From positions 11,532,001-11,596,000 of the forward strand of contig CM068755.1 in the NCBI GenBank assembly GCA_035084275.1: DNA of 64,000 nucleotides. The letters are read 5' to 3'. Below the pieces are notes generated by a model. It was not told where the DNA came from and ran no database searches. It saw nothing but the letters and a program-made list of their open reading frames with translations. This document shows positions 3,179 through 64,000 of this stretch, piece by piece (the first letter of the stretch is position 1; the number at the start of each line of letters is the position of its first letter). This DNA is from Hydrolagus colliei (taxonomy: Eukaryota). Made by a program: the position numbers and the translations under genes.

Positions 3179-5600
3179 AAATTCCCAAATTCCGTGACAA
3201 TATACCAGTGTGGTGATGAAAGCATATCAGCAGATCTAATTTTATCTACTATAATGACAATATTTTGAACGATTGCTTGCAAATTGTACTTGTCAGATTC
3301 AATGGTATGGCAGCAACAACTGGTATGGACATCTCCATTCCAGACCCACTGACAGGGAATTCCCTCCTTGATGACCTCTCAATGACTGAATCAGGCTCAA
3401 TTTCATTGTGGCTGAAGTTCATCGCTTCAATGACAGAACATCTACTTCACTGGAGTCTAAGATAAGTGTCAAACCTCAAGAACACATCTGGCAGCACTCC
3501 TTTCCAACATACAGCACTCAGCAATTAAATAAAAAGTTAATCGAAACAGAGCAAAAATGTCTTCCTCAGTAGCTAATTAATCAATATTCCTACCAACACT
3601 GCCATGAGATAGCATAAGTAAGAAGATTAGTTAACTATGGCATGAAAGCGGATTGACAATTGTCAATGGAAGGACTTCTGAAGTGGAAGGACTTCTGGCA
3701 ATTCATGAGGTTAAATCAATACAATTGATCCTGGTGATGAAGAGACCTGGTACTAATGGTACTATGTATACATTTTAACAGAGGAACTAGCATGGAGGCT
3801 CCATGCGTAGAAAAGAACATCAATGGTGCCAAACTACCTGGTAGCTTGATACAGATGTTGTCAGCTGCCGTAGCCAATACCTAATAGCCCCTAGTTTCTC
3901 TTCCATAAACTCGCATTCTGAACACAAAATGTCGTTTCTAGCTTCAAGAAGAAAACATTTGCAGACTGGCTAATCTAGTTATGTAAGCCTGGAGGCAGCT
4001 TGTTAAATACAGTGGGCTCATTTAACACTACACACCAAATTCTGTGGTTTTTCAAGATGAATACTCAGTTTAGAAGGAAGATGCAAGCCCTGTGCTGGTA
4101 TTGATTAAAGGGCGAGACGACACTGGACTGATTCAAAGGCAAAGCTTGTTCTCTCCCATAAGGGATGCTTGTTAATTTGAGTTGAGAATTTAATGAATCT
4201 GCTGAACTCGAAACCGAATGCCCCCCAAAGAGCTTTAAATTTATTAGAGCTTTACATGTTTTGAGTTTATCGGTTCCAGTTGTATTTTGAACTTTATCGG
4301 TCCCTTTCCCATGCTTTGAACATTAACAGCATCTATCCCCATTCCCTAATGGCTGTGCTTGAAATTAGCAGGGGCTGTTTTACAATAAACGTAATCTTAT
4401 GGGCTTGAAATTCTAATGGGTCTTGTGTGTTACATTAATGGATGTCCCATTATATGTACTTCTGCCAAAGGTCAGTCAATTAACTATTGGGATAATAACC
4501 CCCATTACATTAATTTTAATGAACTGTTTGAAATTGGAATTTATTGCCATTTCGTTATTCTGCTCTGTGTATGGCATTTGCAAGGATGTATCTGTGCAGC
4601 TATTTTAACGGGATGTTTGTGGATTGATGTTTCAATGTTCTATAATTCTCCAAGGCAACATAACCTGGGAGTACAGTAGTGTTGTTGTTACTTATGGGGG
4701 CTTCATTTACAGAATCGCTCATAATGTTTCATGGTCCCTGGGCTAGAGAAACCACTCTGGTCATATTTATTACTGGAGTTGAAGGCAATTTCACACATAA
4801 CACATTCTTTTAAGTCACACTTTGCACCCTAGTTTGTGGCTCCCTCCCACACCTTTTCCCAGTGCCTGTGAAAGGTGTGTGCAAAGCAACCAGCCCAAAT
4901 CTGCTTTGCTGGTCTCTTACCTCTCCAGTCACTAAAGTTGAAAGGCTCCATCAGCAAAATAATATTGCCATTGAAGCCGACACTCAATGTGCCTCCAAAA
5001 ATCATCTCTTTTGCTCTCTCTTGTTTGTTTGATTCCTTTGACCCATTTTACTAGCAGAACAAACAGTCATGGGTGTGTCATGGGAACCATTTCACGGGTA
5101 AAATGATTTTGTTTTTGCATTTTGTCAAAGCTGTTGGCAGGAGTGATAGTCCATAGCCAGTTGACCTAATTAAATTGTGTCCAGAATTGGTACACCCAGT
5201 TCTTCAATTGATACTGATGTGAAATGCGTGCAGCTTTCCCTATGAAGCAGTTTAATACAGTCTGTATTTTTATAACCTCAAAAAATGAAGACCAGGGAAA
5301 AAAAAAGAAGCTTTAATGGCATGTAACGCAGAATATGGCCTACTTTGCAGATACAACGCGAGAACCGTACCTGGTATCACTTACCCTGCTTCAAACAAAA
5401 GAACAAAAAAGTGTTCAGTGTCCAGTGCTAAAGAGCCTTATCTATTCTAAAGTGAACCTAATGATCACTCAGTAATAACACTTATTTAGCACCTTTCATG
5501 TCAGAACCATGTCTCAAAAAGATCTGAGCTCTTGAGTGGCAAGAGGGAAGGAGAAGTGGCCAAAAGCACAGTCGTAAAGATACATCTTAAGGGAGAGGGC

Positions 5601-6260
5601 AACAATATAATTACACTTGTATAGCGCCTTTCATGGGAGGACGTCCCAAGGCGCTGGACAGTCAATGTTTCAGATCCGAGCTGGGGTTGGGATTGGGGAT
5701 TTGGGGTGACTGATGGGACCGTCGAAGGTGAGATTCTTGAGGAGGGACTTGAAGGAGGCCAGGGAGGGGGTGAGGCGGAGGGACTGCTGGAGGGAATTCC
5801 AGAAATTGGGGGCAGAGTGGCTGAAGGCTCGCCCATCGATTATGGGGCTGGTGGAGCAGGCCAGAGCCTGCTGAGCGGAGGGGGCGGGCAGGTTGGCAGG
5901 GGATTAGGAGGTCACAAATGTAAGGTGAACGAGGCCATGGAGGGCTTTGAAGGTGAGGACCAGGATCTTGAATTGAATCCTCTAGGTGATAAGGAGCCAA
6001 TGGAGTCAGGCGAGAATGGGGGAGCTGGGGTCACGGAGCTTGGAGTGGTAGAGGACACAGGCTGCAGAGTTCTGGATGATCTGCAGTCTATGGAGAGAGG
6101 AATTGGGAAGGCTGACAAGCAGGGTGTTGGTGTAATCGAGCCTGGATGTGATGAAGGCATGAATGAGGGTTTTAGTGGCCTGAGGGGTGCAGTGATGGCA
6201 GAGTCGGGCAATGTTGCGGAGGTGAGGGAAACTAACGCGGGTAATGGCTTGGATGCTTGT
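5601..6260 (-). mobile_element. 5'-truncated L2 element (same family as 47382-48400) with internal deletions
   Basis: Minus-strand HLRNIARL...LIHAFITSRLDYTNTLLVSLPNSSLHRLQIIQNSAA. L2 tail at 5601-5660. An older L2-type tail lies adjacent at about 5473-5600. Confidence 0.9.
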
Positions 6261-9200
6261 CAAGGCAGAAAGACTCTATGATAAAGCTCTAGAAAGCTAT
6301 CAGCAAGAAGGACAGCGTTTACTGAGCAACTGGGGGGGGGGGGAAGAAGGGGCCACAGTGATCAGAAACGTGAACCAAAACAATTGGGATTTCAACTAGT
6401 GTGTCACCATTTATCTTTCCCCCAATCAGAATAGTGCCCAAAATATTAGCAGGTAAGCGTCTTCTCATCTGCCAACCATCTTCGCAGGGCAGTTTACTGA
6501 ATTACCGCAATAAATACAATAAGTATTTGCAAGTCTCTCCGAGAAATGCTACAGATTTGGGAAAATGGGCAGCCTGTATTCAAACTTTGTACTGCTACAC
6601 CAGATGTTTGTTTCGTGCAGCTGGGCTCCCGATCCCTTTGTGCTTGTTTTGAAGAATGGACACTCCAGAGAGATGTCCAATCAAACACACGTGCAGCTTT
6701 CAAAATGCTCAGCGCTCTCTGCCAGCAATCAGCCACAAGGACTGTCGCCCACCACCTTGATTCCCACCCCCATCTTCAAAAGATAAGATCCACAAGTCAA
6801 TGCTTTACATCATGTTCAGATTATATGCCATGATGTAATGCATGCACAATTTGATCAAAGATTTGAAAGTGGCCACATCATGTGAATGAAGTAAAGATCT
6901 CTGAAGCACACTCCTGACTTCTAAGGATGAACTTCATATGATAAAGCTTCCCCTTCCCAACAATGCAAGCTCTTACAATTCTATGCTAATGTTCAGAGAT
7001 TTCATTGCATTTTAAAAAATCTAACCGAAATATAATATGCTAACATGCTCAACGAATAAATGTCACCAGTCATAAATTTGTATGCATGAATATAGAAGCT
7101 TTCAATAACTTAAATCATATGAGTGGATTATAGAGGATAATTCAGAATAGGGCAAAACAAGGCAACCCAAAATATCTTTACTGAGGGATGCTGAAGTGGA
7201 CACAATGAATACAACTGTCAAAAATTCAGTCAGATCAGTTGTAAACGTGAAAAGTGCTTTATACATGTTGTTGTTTAATTATAATAACAAAATGACATAT
7301 CTAGCTAACACTTGCCTAATGACAAGACGGCCAAACAAAACAGACACTTTTTAAAAAAAAAATAACCCAGGGAAATGAAACTGATTAGCAGGCACTTTAG
7401 AGTGCCATGCATTGCATTACTCTGTGATAGAAACATGATACTTCTATTTTGACTGTTTACTTACAGCTGTTTAACAATTCAAAGTAATTTTTTTTTAAAT
7501 CGACATTTGATATTCAGTGTCACTTCATGGCAAACTAGAATTAAAATTGTTAAAAGCGTTCTTCAAAGTCACAGATTAACTACAATATACACTTCAAACT
7601 AAAGTGTGACCTATTTTATTAAAAAGTACCTACACAAATCAATGTGTGTCTTCCAATGATGCTTTAACATTGCAGTAATGTTTTTATCCCACTCCCTGCC
7701 CCATCACTCTTTAAAAATATAGCAAAGATTTAAAATTGGGAATTCCTTATCCCTCTAGCAAATATGATAACAAATTGTTATTGTTATAATGGCCCCGTTT
7801 ATGTAGTGATCATATGAACAACATTTACTGTGGTTTTAATATTGGAGCTTAAACTATTGTTGAAAGTGAAACTAAACTGAAAAAGGACAATTTTATAATG
7901 TATGTAACAAATGACAAATTAAAGACAATTATCTAACATTCCAATGCAATACTGGCTTCCAGGATATTTGAATTGGATGTGTTCTGTTCTTCCCCTAACT
8001 CAAATCTTAAAATTGAGATATACAGCAAGCTTTTATCACTGCATCAACCGACAGACTGTTCTCATTCCTTAGTACATAAAGCTACCTGCACCATGCCACT
8101 TTAAATTATGCTCTCTCACATAATTCGAGGAAGAAAAAAAGCATTAAGATTGGAGGTTCTCTCTGGTGCTGCAATAAAAAATGAAAGATTCAATCATAGC
8201 TTTGAGATAATCCTACAATGTTGTTCATTGGTATGTCTGAATAAAACACTTAAATAATTGGGTCTGGGAGCCATTGACTGGCGCGTTTAGCAAGGAAACC
8301 ATAAATGAAAGGAAAAAAACTGAACGCTGGGGAAGCTTGGAAGAAAGGGAAGATGGATATATTTATTTATTAGCTTTTACTTTTGAAACATATGAACTTC
8401 TGTACCATGTTTCCTCAATAAAATTTTGTTACAATTATCTGCCACAGTGAAATAAAACAAAAAAATTATATAAACAGGTTCTGCATGCTAAGAAATTTAG
8501 TCCATTAACAACTAGACATGTCCTTTAATGTAAAACCCAAGTGTTATACTGACACCAACAGATTTTCCACATATATCCAGATGCTTTGAAGTTGCATTCC
8601 AAGTTCAGACCTTTAAATCAAACCCTTTGTTCCACAAAAATAATGTTTAATCATTATCATGTGCAGGGCATATAAGAAGCCAACATTCATGCTTGTCATG
8701 CAAGGTACCCATCCAAATTAAGCTTTCTAAAAATTAACAGAAGAAAAAAAGCTCACTGATATTCTGCTATTATACAGTATGCGGAGAAAACATTCATGAT
8801 ATTTAAAAATACTTAATTGGATCTGTAGGTATCTTGCATTCAGGGCATTGGGACATCCTCCCGACGTGAAAGGAGCTATAAAAATTTAATTTTGTATTGT
8901 GTTATATCATCTCTGTAAGACTCTTCAAGATATTATTGGTGTGAAGAGCGCTCTTTCAATGCAGGCTGTTGGTGGTATTTTTAACCTAATATATCCATCT
9001 GCTCATCTATGATATGAACGCTGGCGGAAGGTTAAAGACGCCACTAAAGTGAGATTTATCAGTTGCACGAAGGCAAAAATGAAAACAGAAATTCTGACAT
9101 CTGGGGGCTATTTCCCTGTGTTTGCTGCCACTGGCACTCAATGCAATTTGATCTTCCTATTTCAAACACTTGTAGCTTGATATATCATCTGTAATTGGCA

Positions 9201-32194: not shown

Positions 32195-32314
32195 CTGATC
32201 ATCATAGCGATACGTCAAGACCTTCTCTCCTGTTGTGTCTTCCAGAAAACTCCCTTGCGGAGAAAGTGCAAATTCGGGAAGGAAGTAGGCAGTCTGTGAC
32301 TGTTCTCCATGCCC
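32195..32314 (-). CDS. ADAMTSL3: ADAMTSL3 second coding exon, 120 nt, phase 0-0: GHGEQSQTAYFLPEFALSPQGSFLEDTTGEKVLTYRYDDQ
   Basis: Acceptor tattgtttctctccag|GGG and donor CAG|GTCAGT. The translation matches the recalled human ADAMTSL3 N-terminal segment AYFLPEFALSPQGSFLEDTTGEQFLTYRYDDQ almost residue for residue. An ADAMTSL1-like paralog cannot be fully excluded without a search. Confidence 0.9.
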
Positions 32315-46037: not shown

Positions 46038-47381
46038 ACTGTATATACCAAATGCTTGCAGTCAAATATAATACAATTATTTAATTCAAAGACTATATGA
46101 TGAATTATACACAATAGCATTTGAATATTTTAAAGTAGCCAAGATGAACTACAGTATTAACAAAATGTCATGTTGATCAAAACGTGATTTTATTCTAACT
46201 TGATTCCAGCCCATCTCATTTCACATACTTTCCAGAAAATTAATATTTGGTAGTTCAGCACCTAATACAGTGAGTGTCTCTACTTTGTGGATGTTATGTC
46301 TGTGAAAACTGCACTTATGTTAGGATTATTTTCTAGCAATTTTACATCTCTAACTACTGTACTAAAATATTTTGTGAAATAGCACTTGTGATTTTAAACA
46401 CCTATTGTTCTCGCTTAACAATGGCCTTTCAGCTATTTACTCCGCCACTGATCATACATTTGACACATGGCCAGATAATTTCACAATAATAAGAAATAAA
46501 AAAAACTATCTGGTGTATATATAAAATATCTAATGTAAACAAGAGACAAATTACAGATATGTGAGGCATTGGAATTTGTACTGATCTTATTTATCTATTT
46601 CTTGGACAAAGGCAACTCAGAACCAAATACTGTACACATCAACATTTGCTATTGTTCTAAATTGATATATTATGGTTACTTTCTCCAGGGGGAAAAAATA
46701 ACTTTCCATGGCAAAATGCTTGTGAATTTATGTCTCTCTTTCGTCCATAACAATCATTGTGCAGTTTTTTGTTATCAAGGGTCAATCTGTCGGTTTCAAT
46801 TTTGTTGTTTTCACATTTACTCTCTCACCCTTCCTACCCGATGAGCCAATTCAGTTCCCCCCTATCAAGTTTTGTTTCCCCAAGCATTGGCCTGTGATTT
46901 TCTACCTCCCAGCTTCAATGTCTGCACAAGACCCCACCTTGTGTGTCTCTCCCAACACTACCTTTCCTCAGCTGCTCTTTTTGCTAGCTTGCACAAGACA
47001 AAAAGACAACATGTTATGTAACTACTTCATCAGCCAAAAAAATACTGGAATGAGAAAAGCCATGTCAAACTGATATGCTATAAATTTTCCATATACCATC
47101 TGTTTGTTTCAGTCTCATCCAGGCCCCTTTTTAAAATTAGATTTACAAGGCTTACTGCATGTATTCCTTAATAGAAAACATCTCCCCAACATCTATATAC
47201 ATTTGTATTGATTTTACACTGATATGACATTTTCAACAAAACAGTTGTCTGCTCCTATTCCAGGAAATTATAGGAACTTGGGAGCTACTGAATGACTTAA
47301 TCAATGGTATATGTGAGACTTAGAATTCATTATTAACTTAGCTCAGGCAACCTACACAGCAGTTCTTAATGGTGCACTTTA

Positions 47382-48400
47382 CATGGGGTAAATTTCCACA
47401 TGTATGAGGATGACACCCAACTCCACCGTTCCGCTTCCACCCTCGACTCCAGGTATACTGGTGTTCTGACAGTGTGTCTGTCCGACATTGAGTCCTGGAC
47501 GAGGGACAACTTTCTCCAACTAAACGTCAATAAGACGGAGGTCCTCCTGATTGGCTTGCATCAGCGCCTCAGCACCTCAGGCATTGGCAACATCAGCATT
47601 CAAGGCTGCACTCTCCACCTCTCGAAGCCAGTCAGGAATTTGGGCGTCTTGTTCGACCTCAAACTATCATTCCTCCCCAAATTCGCGCCATGACGGTACA
47701 GCCTTCCACCACCTCCGCAACATTGCTAGACTCCGTCACTACCTCACTCCCCCAAGCTGCTGAAACACTCATCCACGCTTTCATCACATTTAGGCTCGAC
47801 TGTAGCAACTCTCTCCTCGTCGACCTTCCCAGCTCCTCCCTTCACAAGCTGCAGAGTTCTGAATAATCTCTGCAGCTCGTGTACTCTTGCGCACTAGGCT
47901 CTGCGACCACATGACTCCAACTCTCGCCCGTCTGCACTGGCTCCACATCTCCCAGAGGGTCGAATTCAAGATCCATGTCCTCACTTTCAAGGCCATTCAT
48001 GGCCTTGCCCCTGCCTATCTCTCTGACCTACTGTCTCCTTGTCAGCCTACCTGTCCCCTCCGTTCAGCAGGCATTGGCCTGCTCCATGTCCCCTGCCCGA
48101 ACCATGCTACTATCAGTGGCCGGGCTTTCAGCCTCTCTGCCCCCACACTCTGGAACTCCATCCCGCAATCCCTTTGCCTCGCTTCCTCCCTTTCCTCCTT
48201 TATGACCGGTCTCAAAACCTTCCTCTTCGACTGTGCCTTCTGTTCCCCTCCTAACTCTACCCCCTCTCCTACTCTCCTTCCCTCTACCCCGACCTCCCCC
48301 CACCACACCCGATTGGGTCCTGACCTTACTGTTGAGCGCCTTGGGACGTCCTCCCGAGGTGAAAGGTGCTCTATAAATGTAATTTTATTGTTGTCGGTTG
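47382..48400 (+). mobile_element. 5'-truncated LINE-2 (L2) element: RT C-terminal half plus 3' UTR and tail, frameshifted
   Basis: HGVNFHMYEDDTQL (YADD motif decayed to YEDD), WTRDNFLQLNVNKTEVLLIG, VRNLGVLFD, HLRNIARLR, HAFITFRLD, TPTLARLHWL...RVEFKI, GRAFSLSAPTLWNSIP, LKTFLF. Tail gcgccttgggacgtcc...ctataaatgtaattttattgttg. Confidence 0.92.
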
Positions 48401-48967
48401 TTTTCAAAAGTAAACTAGTTGCAAGAATTTAAACACATTAGGGCAAAAAATGTACGTAATATTGAATGTAACTGAGTTTGAACTTGTAAATGTTGCATTT
48501 CAATTACAAAAACCAATACAGATTGTGGCTGAACAATTACCTCAGGCTCACAAAATTACGTTTCACTTTCTGTTATCCTTCTCCAATCACTCCTGAATTT
48601 TGCCAAGTAAAATCATTTGTCATATCAGAACGCTACTTCCCTACAAAGGCTGGAATTTTGAACCTGGCAGACAGCATTGAGAGCGTATAATCATATAGAG
48701 GCTGTTGTTTAGCTCTCTTGAAAGTTTCCCGCATCTGACTATAAAATCAACACATTTTAAACATCACAAACTTTTTGGAAATGAACCAAAATAACAATTA
48801 AATTCAAAGTTACATCTCCGAACTCTGCAATCAGCGAAAATCTAATTTGAATGTCAGCCAGAGGTTCGTCCTAAAGGATGTGCTTTGCAATAAAAAACAT
48901 GTTGGATCCCAAACCACAGCATTATATACATTTAAGTCTTCATTCATCGACACACCTAGTTGCTGAT

Positions 48968-55130: not shown

Positions 55131-55599
55131 ATGAATAGAATTAGTCCAAAGTCAACACTGAATACATCAGACTAGGAATCCCACCAACTCGAATCAAACC
55201 TCCACCAGTATCCCCTGAGCGCCCTCTGTCGAATCACTTGGAGCTGAACTGCTCACGATTTATTTTGGGGAAGGGAATTTAACTTGTCGCAATTGATTAA
55301 CCTCTCGTCCCATTTTAAATCAATGGGGCAATATATATATACATAATAATGTGTGTATATACACACACACAAACGCGATGATAGCGAGGTCTGTTGTTGT
55401 GAGTCACTGTGAGAGTGATGAATATTCTCTTTTATTCACTGGCAAAAATAAAAATACAATCCGATCTTTGTTTGTTTTTTGGGGTGGGGGAGGAGGAGGC
55501 GGGGTTGAAATCGGCACCTGTTCCAAGAGTGGGTTCCACCAAATTCATTCGGTTTCTGTGGTTTCAAACTGAACGTTGTTTCATGACTTGAGCAGAGAA

Positions 55600-56200
55600 T
55601 TTGTTGGTTTGTTCAGATCAGATCAGCCCCAAGAGCTGGTCCCAAATCAAACCCAGAGCCACACACAAGTGAAGAAGGCTCAGAGGGCAACCCACCTAGT
55701 GTGAGGCTCCTGGGAGAGGGAGAAGAGGTCGGAGCCGGGGGTTGCTCTGCGCTGAGCTCTCCACGCAGACTTTCCTTAGCGGCCACGCCGACCGTGGCAA
55801 TCCGCGAGGCAATTTCAATGAAAAGAAAGAAAAAAGAACCCAATTTACAACGAAACACTCAGTCGGTCAAATGCGGGTGTCCAAACGTCACCCCAGGGTT
55901 TACTCCATTGGCGCTCGACGCTCGTAGGGTGGCAGCACTTTGGTGCTGAAACACACCAGAAATGGACATGACAAGGCCATGATTGTCTGGTCACAGCAAC
56001 AACAACTCCGAGAACCGCTTGACAGTGGCATAGTGCCGCACCGAGCCAGGGAGGGGTGTGGAGGAGGGCGGCACGGTTTAAGCACGGGCGAAAAGCAAGG
56101 TCTTTATGCACGATCTGAAGCTGGGAAAGCAGGGGTGGTGGGGGTGTGGGGGGGGGTGGGTTGTGGGGAAGGTTGGGGTGGAAATCATTAAACTAAGTTT
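55600..56200. promoter_or_regulatory. Isolated CpG-rich island between the two genes (candidate promoter or enhancer)
   Basis: Dense CpGs (gcggccacgccgaccgtgg, tccgcgagg, ggcgctcgacgctcg, gccgcaccgagcc) in an otherwise CpG-depleted window. No repeat or coding signature recognised. Confidence 0.5.
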
Positions 56201-60109: not shown

Positions 60110-60645
60110 CTTTTCTCTCCCCTCGCAAACTCAGCGCCTCGTTGCACATAAACCACGTGCCCCTGGGCTCTCTTTAAAACATGAACTTCGAAGGCGATGC
60201 ACCATCTGACTGCCATTGGGAAAGGGGTTGCTCTAATCCTGAGTCAATCAGTCTTAATCTGGAGGCAAATGTGAGGCTCTCCAATTAGCACAGGAAAATC
60301 CACTAAAATGTCCATCAGGTGACCTATATAAAAGCATCCAATAGCTTTCTATGTCTCACAGAGATGTGAGGGGGGTGCGGTTTTTAAGGCTTGCCCTGGT
60401 GATAGCTTGTGGCACAGTTGATGCTAATGTTCTCTAGCTAATGGTGTTAGTTGTTTTTGTTGTTTAGAGCCATTCGTCAAAGGGAGGGGAATGGAAGGGT
60501 AAGAGGAAATATAATTTCAGGCAAAGGCAGTATAGATGGTGCGACATTCAATGGTTTAGGGGGAGAAAAAATTCATTGGAAGGACGGAGAAACAAACTCA
60601 AAATATCAAATACTTTTGTATTGTGGGAGGGAAAATAAAAAAGAC

Positions 60646-61019
60646 ATGGAGAGCAGCAAGGGTGGGAAAATGTCCTTGACCTCTCACCACGAGGTCAGTG
60701 GCTGCTTCACTCCAGTGCAGAGGCACAGCCCGGGCACTTTGAGTCGCTTAGATGAGAAAGTGGAGCTCCAGCGTCTGAATGACCGCCTGGCTGGTTACAT
60801 CGAACGGGTGCGTTTGCTGGAGAGCGAGAAGGTCCACCTGCTGCAAAGAGCCACCGAGACACGGCAGGAGTCAGTCTCCCAAGGGCAGAGGGACCGCTCC
60901 CTGTACGAGAGCCAGCTGGCCAGCACCAGGAAGCAACTGGACACCACACTGAACGAGAGGTCACACCTTCAGCTACAGCTGGACTGCACTCTGGAAGAAC
61001 ATCGCCAGTTGCAGGCAAG
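60646..61019 (+). CDS. Nuclear lamin (type V intermediate filament; lamin L3/B3-like, divergent), exon 1: head, coil 1A, L1 linker and start of coil 1B
   Basis: ATG in good Kozak context (GACATGG; alternative ATG at 60670). Contains SPGTLSRLDEKVELQRLNDRLAGYIERVRLLESE (IF coil-1A LNDRLAxYI motif) and YESQLASTRKQLD...EEHRQLQAR. Donor AG|GTAATG is phase 2, the same position as lamin intron 1. Confidence 0.92.
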
Positions 61020-61101
61020 GTAATGAGTTCCAAAAGTCACAACTCTCCTCATCTTTGTCTCTCTCTCTCTCTTTCACCCCTCCACCCACTCACTAATTTT
61101 T

Positions 61102-61193
61102 CTCCCCACCACCTAAATGCAAGTATTATTATTTATTGTCGTGATGTCTTCACTCCCCACCCAAATGCAAGTATTATTATTTATGGTTGTGAT
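61102..61193 (+). repeat. ~45-bp direct tandem duplication in lamin intron 1
   Basis: ctccccacc(acc)taaatgcaagtattattatttattgtcgtgat versus ctccccacccaaatgcaagtattattatttatggttgtgat. Confidence 0.85.
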
Positions 61194-63181
61194 TGTTAAG
61201 ACTCCTGAATCTGTTTCCACCCGAACTGTGCAGGGGGAAGCAACACAACTTTACAATGAGGTGCTCTTGAGCTTGATCAACCAATTATTTGCGAACTCGT
61301 GCGGCCCGATCCATAGAAATTGTTTACCGTTTGCTGTTTTTATTTATTTTTTTTACAGAAAAGATATTCGCATTTTAACTTTGCTAGAGAATTGTTTGGA
61401 ATTGGTGAGAGCGAATTAAGCATTTATGGCATCCTTCCTCCCCCCGCCCCACCATCGGCCTTTCCCTCTGAAGCACTGGCTCGATAGGAGGAAACAACAA
61501 CAACAAATATACATTTGTAATTATGCCTTTCTCGTCAGGAGGATGTTCCAAGGTCCAAGAAAGATGCCCACATCAGTCTAAAACTGCACTAATCCTATTC
61601 TTGAGCAGATAATTATTTTTTTGAAACTAATCTAAAGAAGCACCAACGATAGCTTCTGTTCTTTGATCTGTGAATAAATATCTGTATGATTGCAGGACAA
61701 AAATGTATGACTTTGCAGTTGCAAACTTTAAATATGTGTGTATATATATATATAATATATATGAATCACCCATTCCAGGCCAATGAATTAAAGTAAAGAG
61801 TCACCTGGACTGTGGACTTTTGGCCAGGAAGGCATTGTGTTCTCATAGTATATATGTTTCACATTCTCTGGGTTGATTTTTTACTAACCTGCCTCCATCC
61901 TAGTGTGAAATTATTTGCTCTAATTTTGATGGTTCCATTTTGAGTGTGGCGCTCCAGAGGAACTGAACGTCTAGCACCTTGAGACATCCTCCTGAGGCGG
62001 AAGGCACTCTACAAATGTAGTATTATTGTTGTTGTGTATTTTCACTGGCAGAGAGAGAGAGAGAGCTGGTTTTGTACTGCATCACATTTTAATGCAGAAA
62101 AATGTATGGTTTAAAAATGCAACAATTTTACTTTTTCAGTTTTATATGAATGCCAGATGTCTTCATTACTAGAGTTTTGTGCTTTTCAAAGAAAAGCCTG
62201 TGTGTTTGCTATCAACATTTGCTGGAAATGTGAAGAGGCTAAGGCATAATATTGGTTTGTTGTGTCCAACTGTTCTCCCCAGACTGGAGCAATTCAATAT
62301 GATCCATGTCTGTGCAGTCTAGTGATGCAATGTTGAAGTCTCTACAACTAAGGGCACTCCATATGTTGGGCATTGGTTTTGCTTGTTGCGGAATTAGCAT
62401 CGGTTTCAGAGTCAGGCTGGTCAATCATCAGCCTTGCAGTACTGTGTGCCTCTGAGACGCCGTCCGGTATGGAGGACGCTATATAAATCAAAGTTGTTTT
62501 TGTTGCCTGTGTGTCCAAGGTGATGGTTGCTGAGTCCAACACAATGAGTAGAACAACTTAATCTTTAGAGATGCTCATCTTATTTCACTCCTTTCACTTC
62601 CTCTTGCTCTGCACCCCCACAACACATTGTATTTTTTTATATAACGCTTTTCATGCCGGGAAGAGTCCCACCAAGTTACAAGTTGGGATTCAGGTTAGTG
62701 TCCAGTGCATTTGTGAACTCTCACAGGATAGATATTTTGTGCCAGGAATTCCTCCTGAGTGGATTAGTGAGCAATATTGCTGCACATAAAATATTATAAA
62801 GCATGCATTTTCAAGCCCCATAGTGGGAACTTATTGTATCCTCTCAAATGTCATCCCACCGGTTGGAGATGTGAAGCTTCAGCAATAGCAGCGTAGACCT
62901 CTGCATACCAATATTAGTCACTAAATCCCAAATGCAGAGATCACTTGCACACGCGCACACATAATCTCAAGGTGATTTCTTCCAGAAGGTGTTGTCACAC
63001 ACCTCAAAGATTTTCCAATTGTCCATTGAGAGTATTACCTTCAGCTTACCGAGGGTCTCTTGCAGGCAGCTTTTGCAGTTTTGATTGATTTAATTGGTGG
63101 GCGTTTTGAGTAGAATAATAAAATCAACCCAGGTAGAAACGGTTCAAAATAAATCAACTTGACTAACTTATTCTCTTTCAG

Positions 63182-63338
63182 AAATGCAAAAATTGAAGAG
63201 AATCTAAAATCTGCTTTAGAACGATTAAAGGATTTGGAGGCATGTTTACTTTCCAGAGAGGCCCAATTGGCAACGTCACTAAGTGAGAAGAGGAACTTGG
63301 AGTATGAACTGGCTGATGGTAAAGCTGAGTTTGAAAAA
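63182..63338 (+). CDS. Lamin exon 2 (157 nt; coil 1B including the lamin-specific extension): NAKIEENLKSALERLKDLEACLLSREAQLATSLSEKRNLEYELADGKAEFEK
   Basis: Branch point GACTAAC (63161-63167), acceptor ttctctttcag| and donor AAA|GTAAGC. The 157-nt length equals vertebrate lamin exon 2. The motif LKDLEAxLxSxEAxLATxLSEKRxLE is typical of lamins. Confidence 0.93.
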
Positions 63339-63450
63339 GTAAGCCTTACACACCAAAAATGTAGACTCTCTTTTTCTTTCTCGGAAATATGAAAGACCAA
63401 TTGTGTTCAACTACATGGTTCGAGTGGCTTCTCTCTCAATTATATTTCAG

Positions 63451-63576
63451 ATTCTATCAGTTGCTGATTGTGTAAAAACACAACTGCATGATGAATTGTT
63501 GCAAAGGTGTGATTTGGAAAACCGTATGCAAACCTTGTTGGAAAGACTAGAATTTCAGGAAAATCTGCATCAACGG
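63451..63576 (+). CDS. Lamin exon 3 (126 nt): ILSVADCVKTQLHDELLQRCDLENRMQTLLERLEFQENLHQR
   Basis: Acceptor tatatttcag| and donor CGG|GTATGT. The 126-nt length equals lamin exon 3 and matches the lamin motif KQLxDExLxRVDLENRxQTLxExLxF. The gene continues beyond the window. Confidence 0.93.
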
Positions 63577-63779
63577 GTATGTAGCTGATGTTTGCCGTTT
63601 GGTTTTTGGCATTCATTAGAATCAATTGGTGCTGATATCACTGAATTGATGGGGTTAATGCAGGCATGGATTGTAATCTGTACCAACTAATTCACGTTAA
63701 AGATATTGAAAGTGTGCAGATTTTGCGAGAACACTTAGAGAATTTAGAGAAAGTGTCTGTTATTATTCTATTCTAACAT

Positions 63780-63930
63780 CCAGGCTGAGAAACTTTCTGT
63801 TCTGTGCTAAGTTAGCTGTTCTTGCGTGCCCCAGCAACCGGGATAAAACATTATTGTATCCGTGCCCTGAATTAGGGAGTGAAAGTCAACCTAGACTCCT
63901 GATCCCCTTTCAGTCAACTATCTTGCTAAC
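63780..63930 (+). mobile_element. Diverged tRNA-SINE remnant (LF-SINE-like) in lamin intron 3
   Basis: tctgtgctaagttagctgttctt...gtgccctgaattagggagtgaaagtcaacc...ctcctgatc. A related remnant with a B box (ggttcaatccc) lies at about 56990-57090. Confidence 0.45.
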
Positions 63931-64000
63931 CCACCCCCACACCTCCATCCATTATGTACGACTGTGACAAATTTCTCTGATGCTGCAGATTCAAATATAA

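Follow-up and report, generated by a model that had tools for sequence, protein, structure and literature searches.

The lamin gene and its surroundings

The window analysed here, i.e., the whole stretch of 64,000 nucleotides from Hydrolagus colliei contig CM068755.1 (positions 11,532,001 to 11,596,000, forward strand), ends inside a lamin gene, of which it contains exons 1-3 (Table 1). These exons possess AG/GT ends and, once joined, stay open over 657 nt or 219 codons, a frame in which the three peptides quoted in the original prediction can be found. Exon sizes, the phase-2 intron 1, splice ends and open frame all proved to be as described there, and the three lamin exons are real. Exon 1 matches the Pfam family Filament (E 6.5e-19), and its best PDB match is human lamin A/C (E 2.5e-16); its lamin identity is therefore far beyond chance. 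An alternative start ATG at 60670 coincides with the annotated start of the Callorhinchus milii protein, so that the first 8 codons are uncertain. Exon 1 has GC 0.59 and GC3 0.74 (exons 2-3, GC 0.37-0.38), and its CpG ratio of 0.47 is below the 0.82 of exon 1 in lamins B1 and B2.

We examined 160 kb downstream of the window, using as a guide the Callorhinchus milii protein that a search with exon 1 had retrieved (74% identity). Eight further exons were recovered, as the original prediction had recommended, and the gene ends at L011:9703 (73703 in continued window numbering). The complete model has 11 exons and a frame of 1755 nt for 584 amino acids, with a single, terminal stop and no frameshift; all ten introns are GT-AG, and exon plan and intron phases are the same as in the B1 and B2 genes of the same genome. 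Exons 10 and 11 as well as the start codon are putative and were placed by homology. The rod has both end motifs in consensus form, with a span of 341 residues from one to the other (50 of the 56 lamins compared have the same span), and Filament is matched by exons 1, 3 and 6. An NLS-like motif in exon 7, an Ig fold across exons 7-9 and a CaaX end complete the protein, which closes with CVMM before the stop (CIMM in the Callorhinchus ortholog). Single exons tested alone did not reach the Pfam LTD family; the record of the Callorhinchus protein carries PF00932, and exons 7-9 share 83-88% identity with this protein.

Identity to the Callorhinchus protein is 72-93% in the exons, in contrast to 40% (55/139 positions) for translated intron read-through, which was measured on six segments of mis-predicted Callorhinchus records (four of them from the L3 gene). 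The coding sequence therefore appears to be under constraint. The introns can also be aligned with those of Callorhinchus. Over L011, run X1 (possibly the assembly's own sample, and thus not independent support) contains no coding indel or stop. Its coding differences, at L011:4877 (exon 5) and L011:5814 (exon 6), both change the amino acid, the second to the Callorhinchus residue.

Table 1. Features of the lamin gene and neighbouring genes. Positions without prefix are those of the window; L011 positions plus 64000 continue the window numbering.
Feature	Position	Strand	Remarks
TATA-like box	60327-60334	+	candidate promoter element, ~320 nt 5' of first ATG
Exon 1, coding part	60646-61019	+	374 nt, phase-2 intron; head, coil 1A, L1, start of coil 1B
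Exon 2	63182-63338	+	157 nt, coil 1B
Exon 3	63451-63576	+	126 nt, coil 1B
Start of intron 3	63577-64000	+	gene runs past window end
Exon 4	L011:133-303	+	
Exon 5	L011:4852-4977	+	
Exon 6	L011:5735-5955	+	end of rod
Exon 7	L011:6582-6792	+	T-P-S-P, KKRK, start of Ig fold
Exon 8	L011:7249-7356	+	
Exon 9	L011:7829-7948	+	
Exon 10	L011:8743-8841	+	reduced acidic patch
Possible decayed LIIIb exon	L011:9227-9256	+	in intron 10
Exon 11	L011:9662-9703	+	CaaX and stop
AATAAA	L011:9847	+	144 nt past exon 11
MARCH2/3-like RINGv gene	L012:3546-6804	-	tail to tail with lamin gene; RING exon 6 kb past its stop
Endophilin A3 (SH3GL3)-like gene	L013:5340 to L014:4546 (approximate)	-	BAR and SH3 exons; best PDB match SH3GL3
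Exon assigned to ADAMTS-like neighbour	32195-32314	-	TSP1 and cysteine-rich exons left of window (L073-L080)

Most of the window consists of introns of the large ADAMTS-like gene, which we take to be ADAMTSL3 and which extends beyond the left edge of the window upstream of the lamin gene, and of the spacer between the two genes. The ADAMTS-like gene may have its promoter in a weak CpG-rich patch near 55501-56000, and fragments of an abundant repeat, probably a LINE, lie at 5500-6280 and 47340-48430, with many copies at the B1 and B2 loci. Pfam searches gave three BAR matches and one weak match, which was disregarded, among 141 predicted exon candidates, and no match among 65 upstream exon candidates. 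RINGv genes (three of the ten RINGv matches) lie 6, 25 and 44 kb from the L3, B1 and B2 genes, respectively, and the MARCH2/3-like gene beside the window lamin looks like a third paralog of the MARCH genes at B1 and B2. An all-against-all comparison of open reading frames of these three loci was swamped by repeats. The lamin-MARCH linkage at all three loci fits an old copy from genome duplication. To our knowledge, the human SH3GL3-ADAMTSL3 interval contains no MARCH-type gene. SH3GL3 and ADAMTSL3 are described together in the human 15q25 region (PMC9836357), and L3 is reported as lost in placental mammals (PMC12873871).

Affiliation with lamin L3

The closest relative of the window lamin is a Callorhinchus milii protein named lamin-A-like (XP_007905272.1; UniRef A0A4W3GTG0), with 82% identity over 576 columns. 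The best matches of this ortholog outside Callorhinchus are shark lamin-B3/L(III)-like proteins (51-58%). The window lamin itself is 51% identical to shark L3, 43% to shark lamin A, 39-40% to B1/B2 and 44-45% to coelacanth and Xenopus L3. Furthermore, it possesses an LIIIa-type terminal exon, and its end aligns with the LIIIa ends of sharks, Xenopus and birds.

For a quick tree, 56 rows were picked from 249 fetched proteins plus three gene models of the H. colliei genome, and 28 of these rows were used for a careful tree and for AU tests; the group labels are database names. In the careful tree the window lamin and the Callorhinchus protein form a pair (100/100), which is sister to six shark/ray L3 proteins (100/100) and nested in L3 (100/100). 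The topology of the quick tree agrees. The AU test rejected both trees in which the chimaera pair groups with lamin A (p 6.2e-7) and trees in which all other L3 proteins form a clade that excludes this pair (p 3.0e-5). The long branch of chimaera L3 can be misplaced in trees, but both trees and both AU tests concur.

Four lamin queries (exon 1, exon 6, shark lamin A and platypus lamin A) revealed three multi-exon lamin genes in the 1.0-Gb assembly and no second L3. The other two genes, modelled on C1 and C33, are B1 and B2 (89% and 90% identical to Callorhinchus records), and the weaker matches are presumably cytoplasmic filament genes. Intron 7 of lamin B2 has a GC donor (G000:C33:8274056-8274281), and a match at G000:C13:9451064-9451267 (minus strand) covers the lamin tail domain only; it probably belongs to a lamin-tail-domain-containing gene rather than to a lamin.

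These sequence comparisons identify the window gene as a one-to-one ortholog of lamin L3 (LIII/B3) rather than an extra lamin gene. An uncharacterised additional paralog had been among the original suggestions. As a fifth lamin peculiar to cartilaginous fishes, the gene could account for its low identity to all bony-vertebrate lamins (44-45% even to coelacanth and Xenopus L3) and for the long stem branches of L3 (0.25 in chondrichthyans and 0.44 in chimaeras). However, no L3 other than this one was found in the assembly, the tree mirrors the species tree, exclusion from L3 is rejected (p 3e-5), and the lamin-MARCH linkage seen at B1 and B2 too fits an old genome-duplication copy. We consider this reading very improbable.

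The name of the Callorhinchus ortholog would suit the idea that the gene is a diverged lamin A, the one that chimaeras seem to lack, as would the fact that no lamin A gene was found in the assembly with shark or platypus lamin A queries. Against it stand the AU test (p 6e-7), the identity of 43% to shark lamin A vs 51% to shark L3, and the tail, where exon 10 is followed by the CaaX exon with no A-type extension in between and the end is LIIIa-type as in shark L3. Barring an artefact in both tree and tail structure, this candidate is ruled out, and we give it almost no credence. Thus, "lamin-A-like" is a database misnomer for chimaera L3.

A Pfam LTD search of the genome gave no match, though three genes with this domain are present, so that family searches evidently miss intron-split domains. 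The presumed neighbours of lamin A are genes for TRAP-beta, Nnf1 and Robl_LC7 proteins. Family searches of the genome, which are insensitive to intron-split domains, were blank for TRAP-beta and Nnf1 and gave two unassigned matches for Robl_LC7. The missing lamin A may therefore reflect either gene loss or an assembly gap. That no lamin A turned up is in agreement with Kollmar 2015 (PMC4448529), where Callorhinchus is stated to have lost lamin A/C. The same study uses the name lamin D for LIII, and its supplement labels the Callorhinchus ortholog ClmLamin_D, i.e., as LIII already. The expectation that the locus would be the strongest candidate for new biology in the window was therefore too high: the gene is a known one. 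Our search found no publication on chimaera L3 itself, but the smaller points made below may already have been published, e.g., in the work of the Stick laboratory on lamin evolution.

Rate of change

Many normally conserved residues had been noted as altered, and this was borne out. Of the alignment columns, 121 are near-invariant across 31 bony-vertebrate lamins (invariance of at least 95%). At these columns the window lamin has 26 changes, Callorhinchus L3 has 22 and seven shark/ray L3 proteins have 12-24, compared with 0-8 in 14 chondrichthyan A/B1/B2 rows. The 0-7 changes in 13 bony-vertebrate L3 rows must be read with the fact that the same rows helped to define the columns. In the careful tree, the chimaera stem branch is 0.44 in L3 vs 0.084 and 0.085 in B1 and B2, and the chondrichthyan L3 stem measures 0.25. 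Identities show the same: 51% for L3 and 80% for B1 with Heptranchias, and 47% for L3 and 80% for B2 with Pristis. The window L3 is thus evolving several-fold faster than B1 and B2 of the same genome. Relative-rate tests against shark/ray L3 comprised 18 non-independent comparisons for each chimaera protein; the window lamin came out as faster in 11 of them and the Callorhinchus protein in 6. Since shark/ray L3 proteins are also derived at the near-invariant columns, the divergence seen at first is mostly a property of cartilaginous-fish L3 in general, with an extra step in chimaeras. An ordinary one-to-one L3 ortholog with normal branch length had been named as the opposite of the original prediction; a one-to-one ortholog it is, but its branch is long.

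Within the chimaeras, the window lamin carries 36 unique changes vs 13 in Callorhinchus L3 (p 0.001), whereas four B1/B2 controls were non-significant; the terminal branches are 0.15 and 0.053, respectively. This threefold difference without B1/B2 asymmetry is what an L3 in early decay might show, i.e., a gene that keeps its open frame although selection on it has largely been lifted in the window lineage, and both X1 coding differences are amino-acid changing. Nevertheless, 1755 nt without stop or frameshift, the retention of all splice sites, of the NLS-like motif and of the CaaX box, and the exon identity of 72-93% to Callorhinchus vs 40% for introns make early decay unlikely; two X1 variants do not allow a judgement, and one of them is the Callorhinchus residue. 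An intact but derived L3-type lamin, as originally proposed, is backed by gene model, trees and rate tests alike.

Our preferred reading, to which we assign a probability of about 0.88, is an intact single L3 gene that evolves several-fold faster than B1/B2 and likely builds the lamina of oocyte and early embryo. To these stages LIII is described as being almost confined in teleosts, amphibians and birds (PMC4680568), and by orthology with the frog, fish and bird genes the window L3 would have the same role. By analogy with the lamin family, the protein would form dimers through its coiled-coil rod, KKRK would drive its nuclear import, farnesylation of CVMM would anchor it at the inner nuclear membrane, and phosphorylation beside the rod would dismantle the meshwork at cell division. 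The fast rate may be due to relaxed constraint on a tissue-restricted lamin, starting on the chondrichthyan stem and becoming stronger in chimaeras.

Head site, tail and lineage-specific features

The window lamin and Callorhinchus L3 share the CaaX tail type, the reduced acidic patch and a change in the head, where the S-P acceptor is kept and the basic residue at +3 is lost; the two differ in that the window copy has ~3 times more lineage-specific changes. Shark/ray L3 proteins (Heptranchias, Carcharodon, Stegostoma, Scyliorhinus, Pristis) form the sister clade, have the same LIIIa-type end and are likewise derived. However, they are only 47-51% identical to the window lamin in the two pairs measured, and the seven shark/ray L3 rows of the tree retain S-P-x-R in the head, which the window lamin does not. 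A full S/T-P-x-K/R site is found nowhere in the window and Callorhinchus proteins, and at least one is present in the other 54 of 56 rows. Among 247 fetched lamins with a readable head, the head site deviates from the full consensus in five; four of these are records of the Callorhinchus gene, and the fifth comes from Scyliorhinus torazame. This CDK1 site is described as common to all lamins except that of C. elegans (PMC4680568, section 2.1). In the tail, the last 50 residues of the window lamin include 7 D/E vs 10-12 in shark/ray L3.

With LIII of Xenopus, teleosts and birds, the window lamin shares the clade, rod length, NLS-like motif, Ig fold and LIIIa-type CaaX end. These genes also make LIIIb (a basic run plus two cysteines), whereas no intact exon of this type was found in the window-gene model. 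LIIIa and LIIIb are splice forms in amphibians (PMC4680568), and in the chicken-labelled row of the Kollmar alignment (PMC4448529) the LIIIb end is written ahead of LIIIa. LIIIb-type tails occur in 34 of 249 fetched proteins, all from bony vertebrates, and in none of 19 chondrichthyan L3 records; their absence is therefore not specific to the window gene. In the window gene the corresponding place is intron 10, and judged by its sequence a decayed LIIIb exon may lie there: behind an AG acceptor at L011:9227 come a short stretch of basic residues, a stop and then Y-F-V-S-stop. By the combined acceptor-plus-profile score this match takes 2nd to 4th place in 224 kb, with an expectation of 0.007-0.014 for the intron, and the profile alone favoured an overlapping frame, at 0.035-0.05. 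As the site had been spotted by eye before the score was built, we treat it as a lead only. The counterpart of the second C-terminal peptide listed by Kollmar 2015 for Callorhinchus lamin D lies at L012:130-165 (plus strand). Its frame is shifted by one base relative to the better acceptor and a poly(A) signal precedes it, so that it is probably not a working exon.

One could read more into these features, namely that chimaera L3 is a functionally remodelled lamin. In this view, the LIIIb membrane-anchor isoform disappeared and left a fossil exon in intron 10, the head CDK1 site was deprived of its basic determinant and the tail of most of its acidic residues, so that the lamina would be dismantled differently at meiosis or mitosis or would serve non-dividing cells, possibly replacing a truly lost lamin A. 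We regard such remodelling as doubtful. On the preferred reading of an intact, fast-evolving L3, the result is a known gene with modest lineage quirks: "lamin-A-like" is corrected to L3 and a second chimaera L3 is added, and otherwise the finding matters little. The small new points are the head CDK1 site, the acidic patch and the possible LIIIb relic. For the family, all sampled cartilaginous-fish L3 proteins are derived, and the LIIIb isoform may have been secondarily lost in cartilaginous fishes. The loss of the head CDK1 consensus in both chimaeras provides a natural test of the importance of that site.
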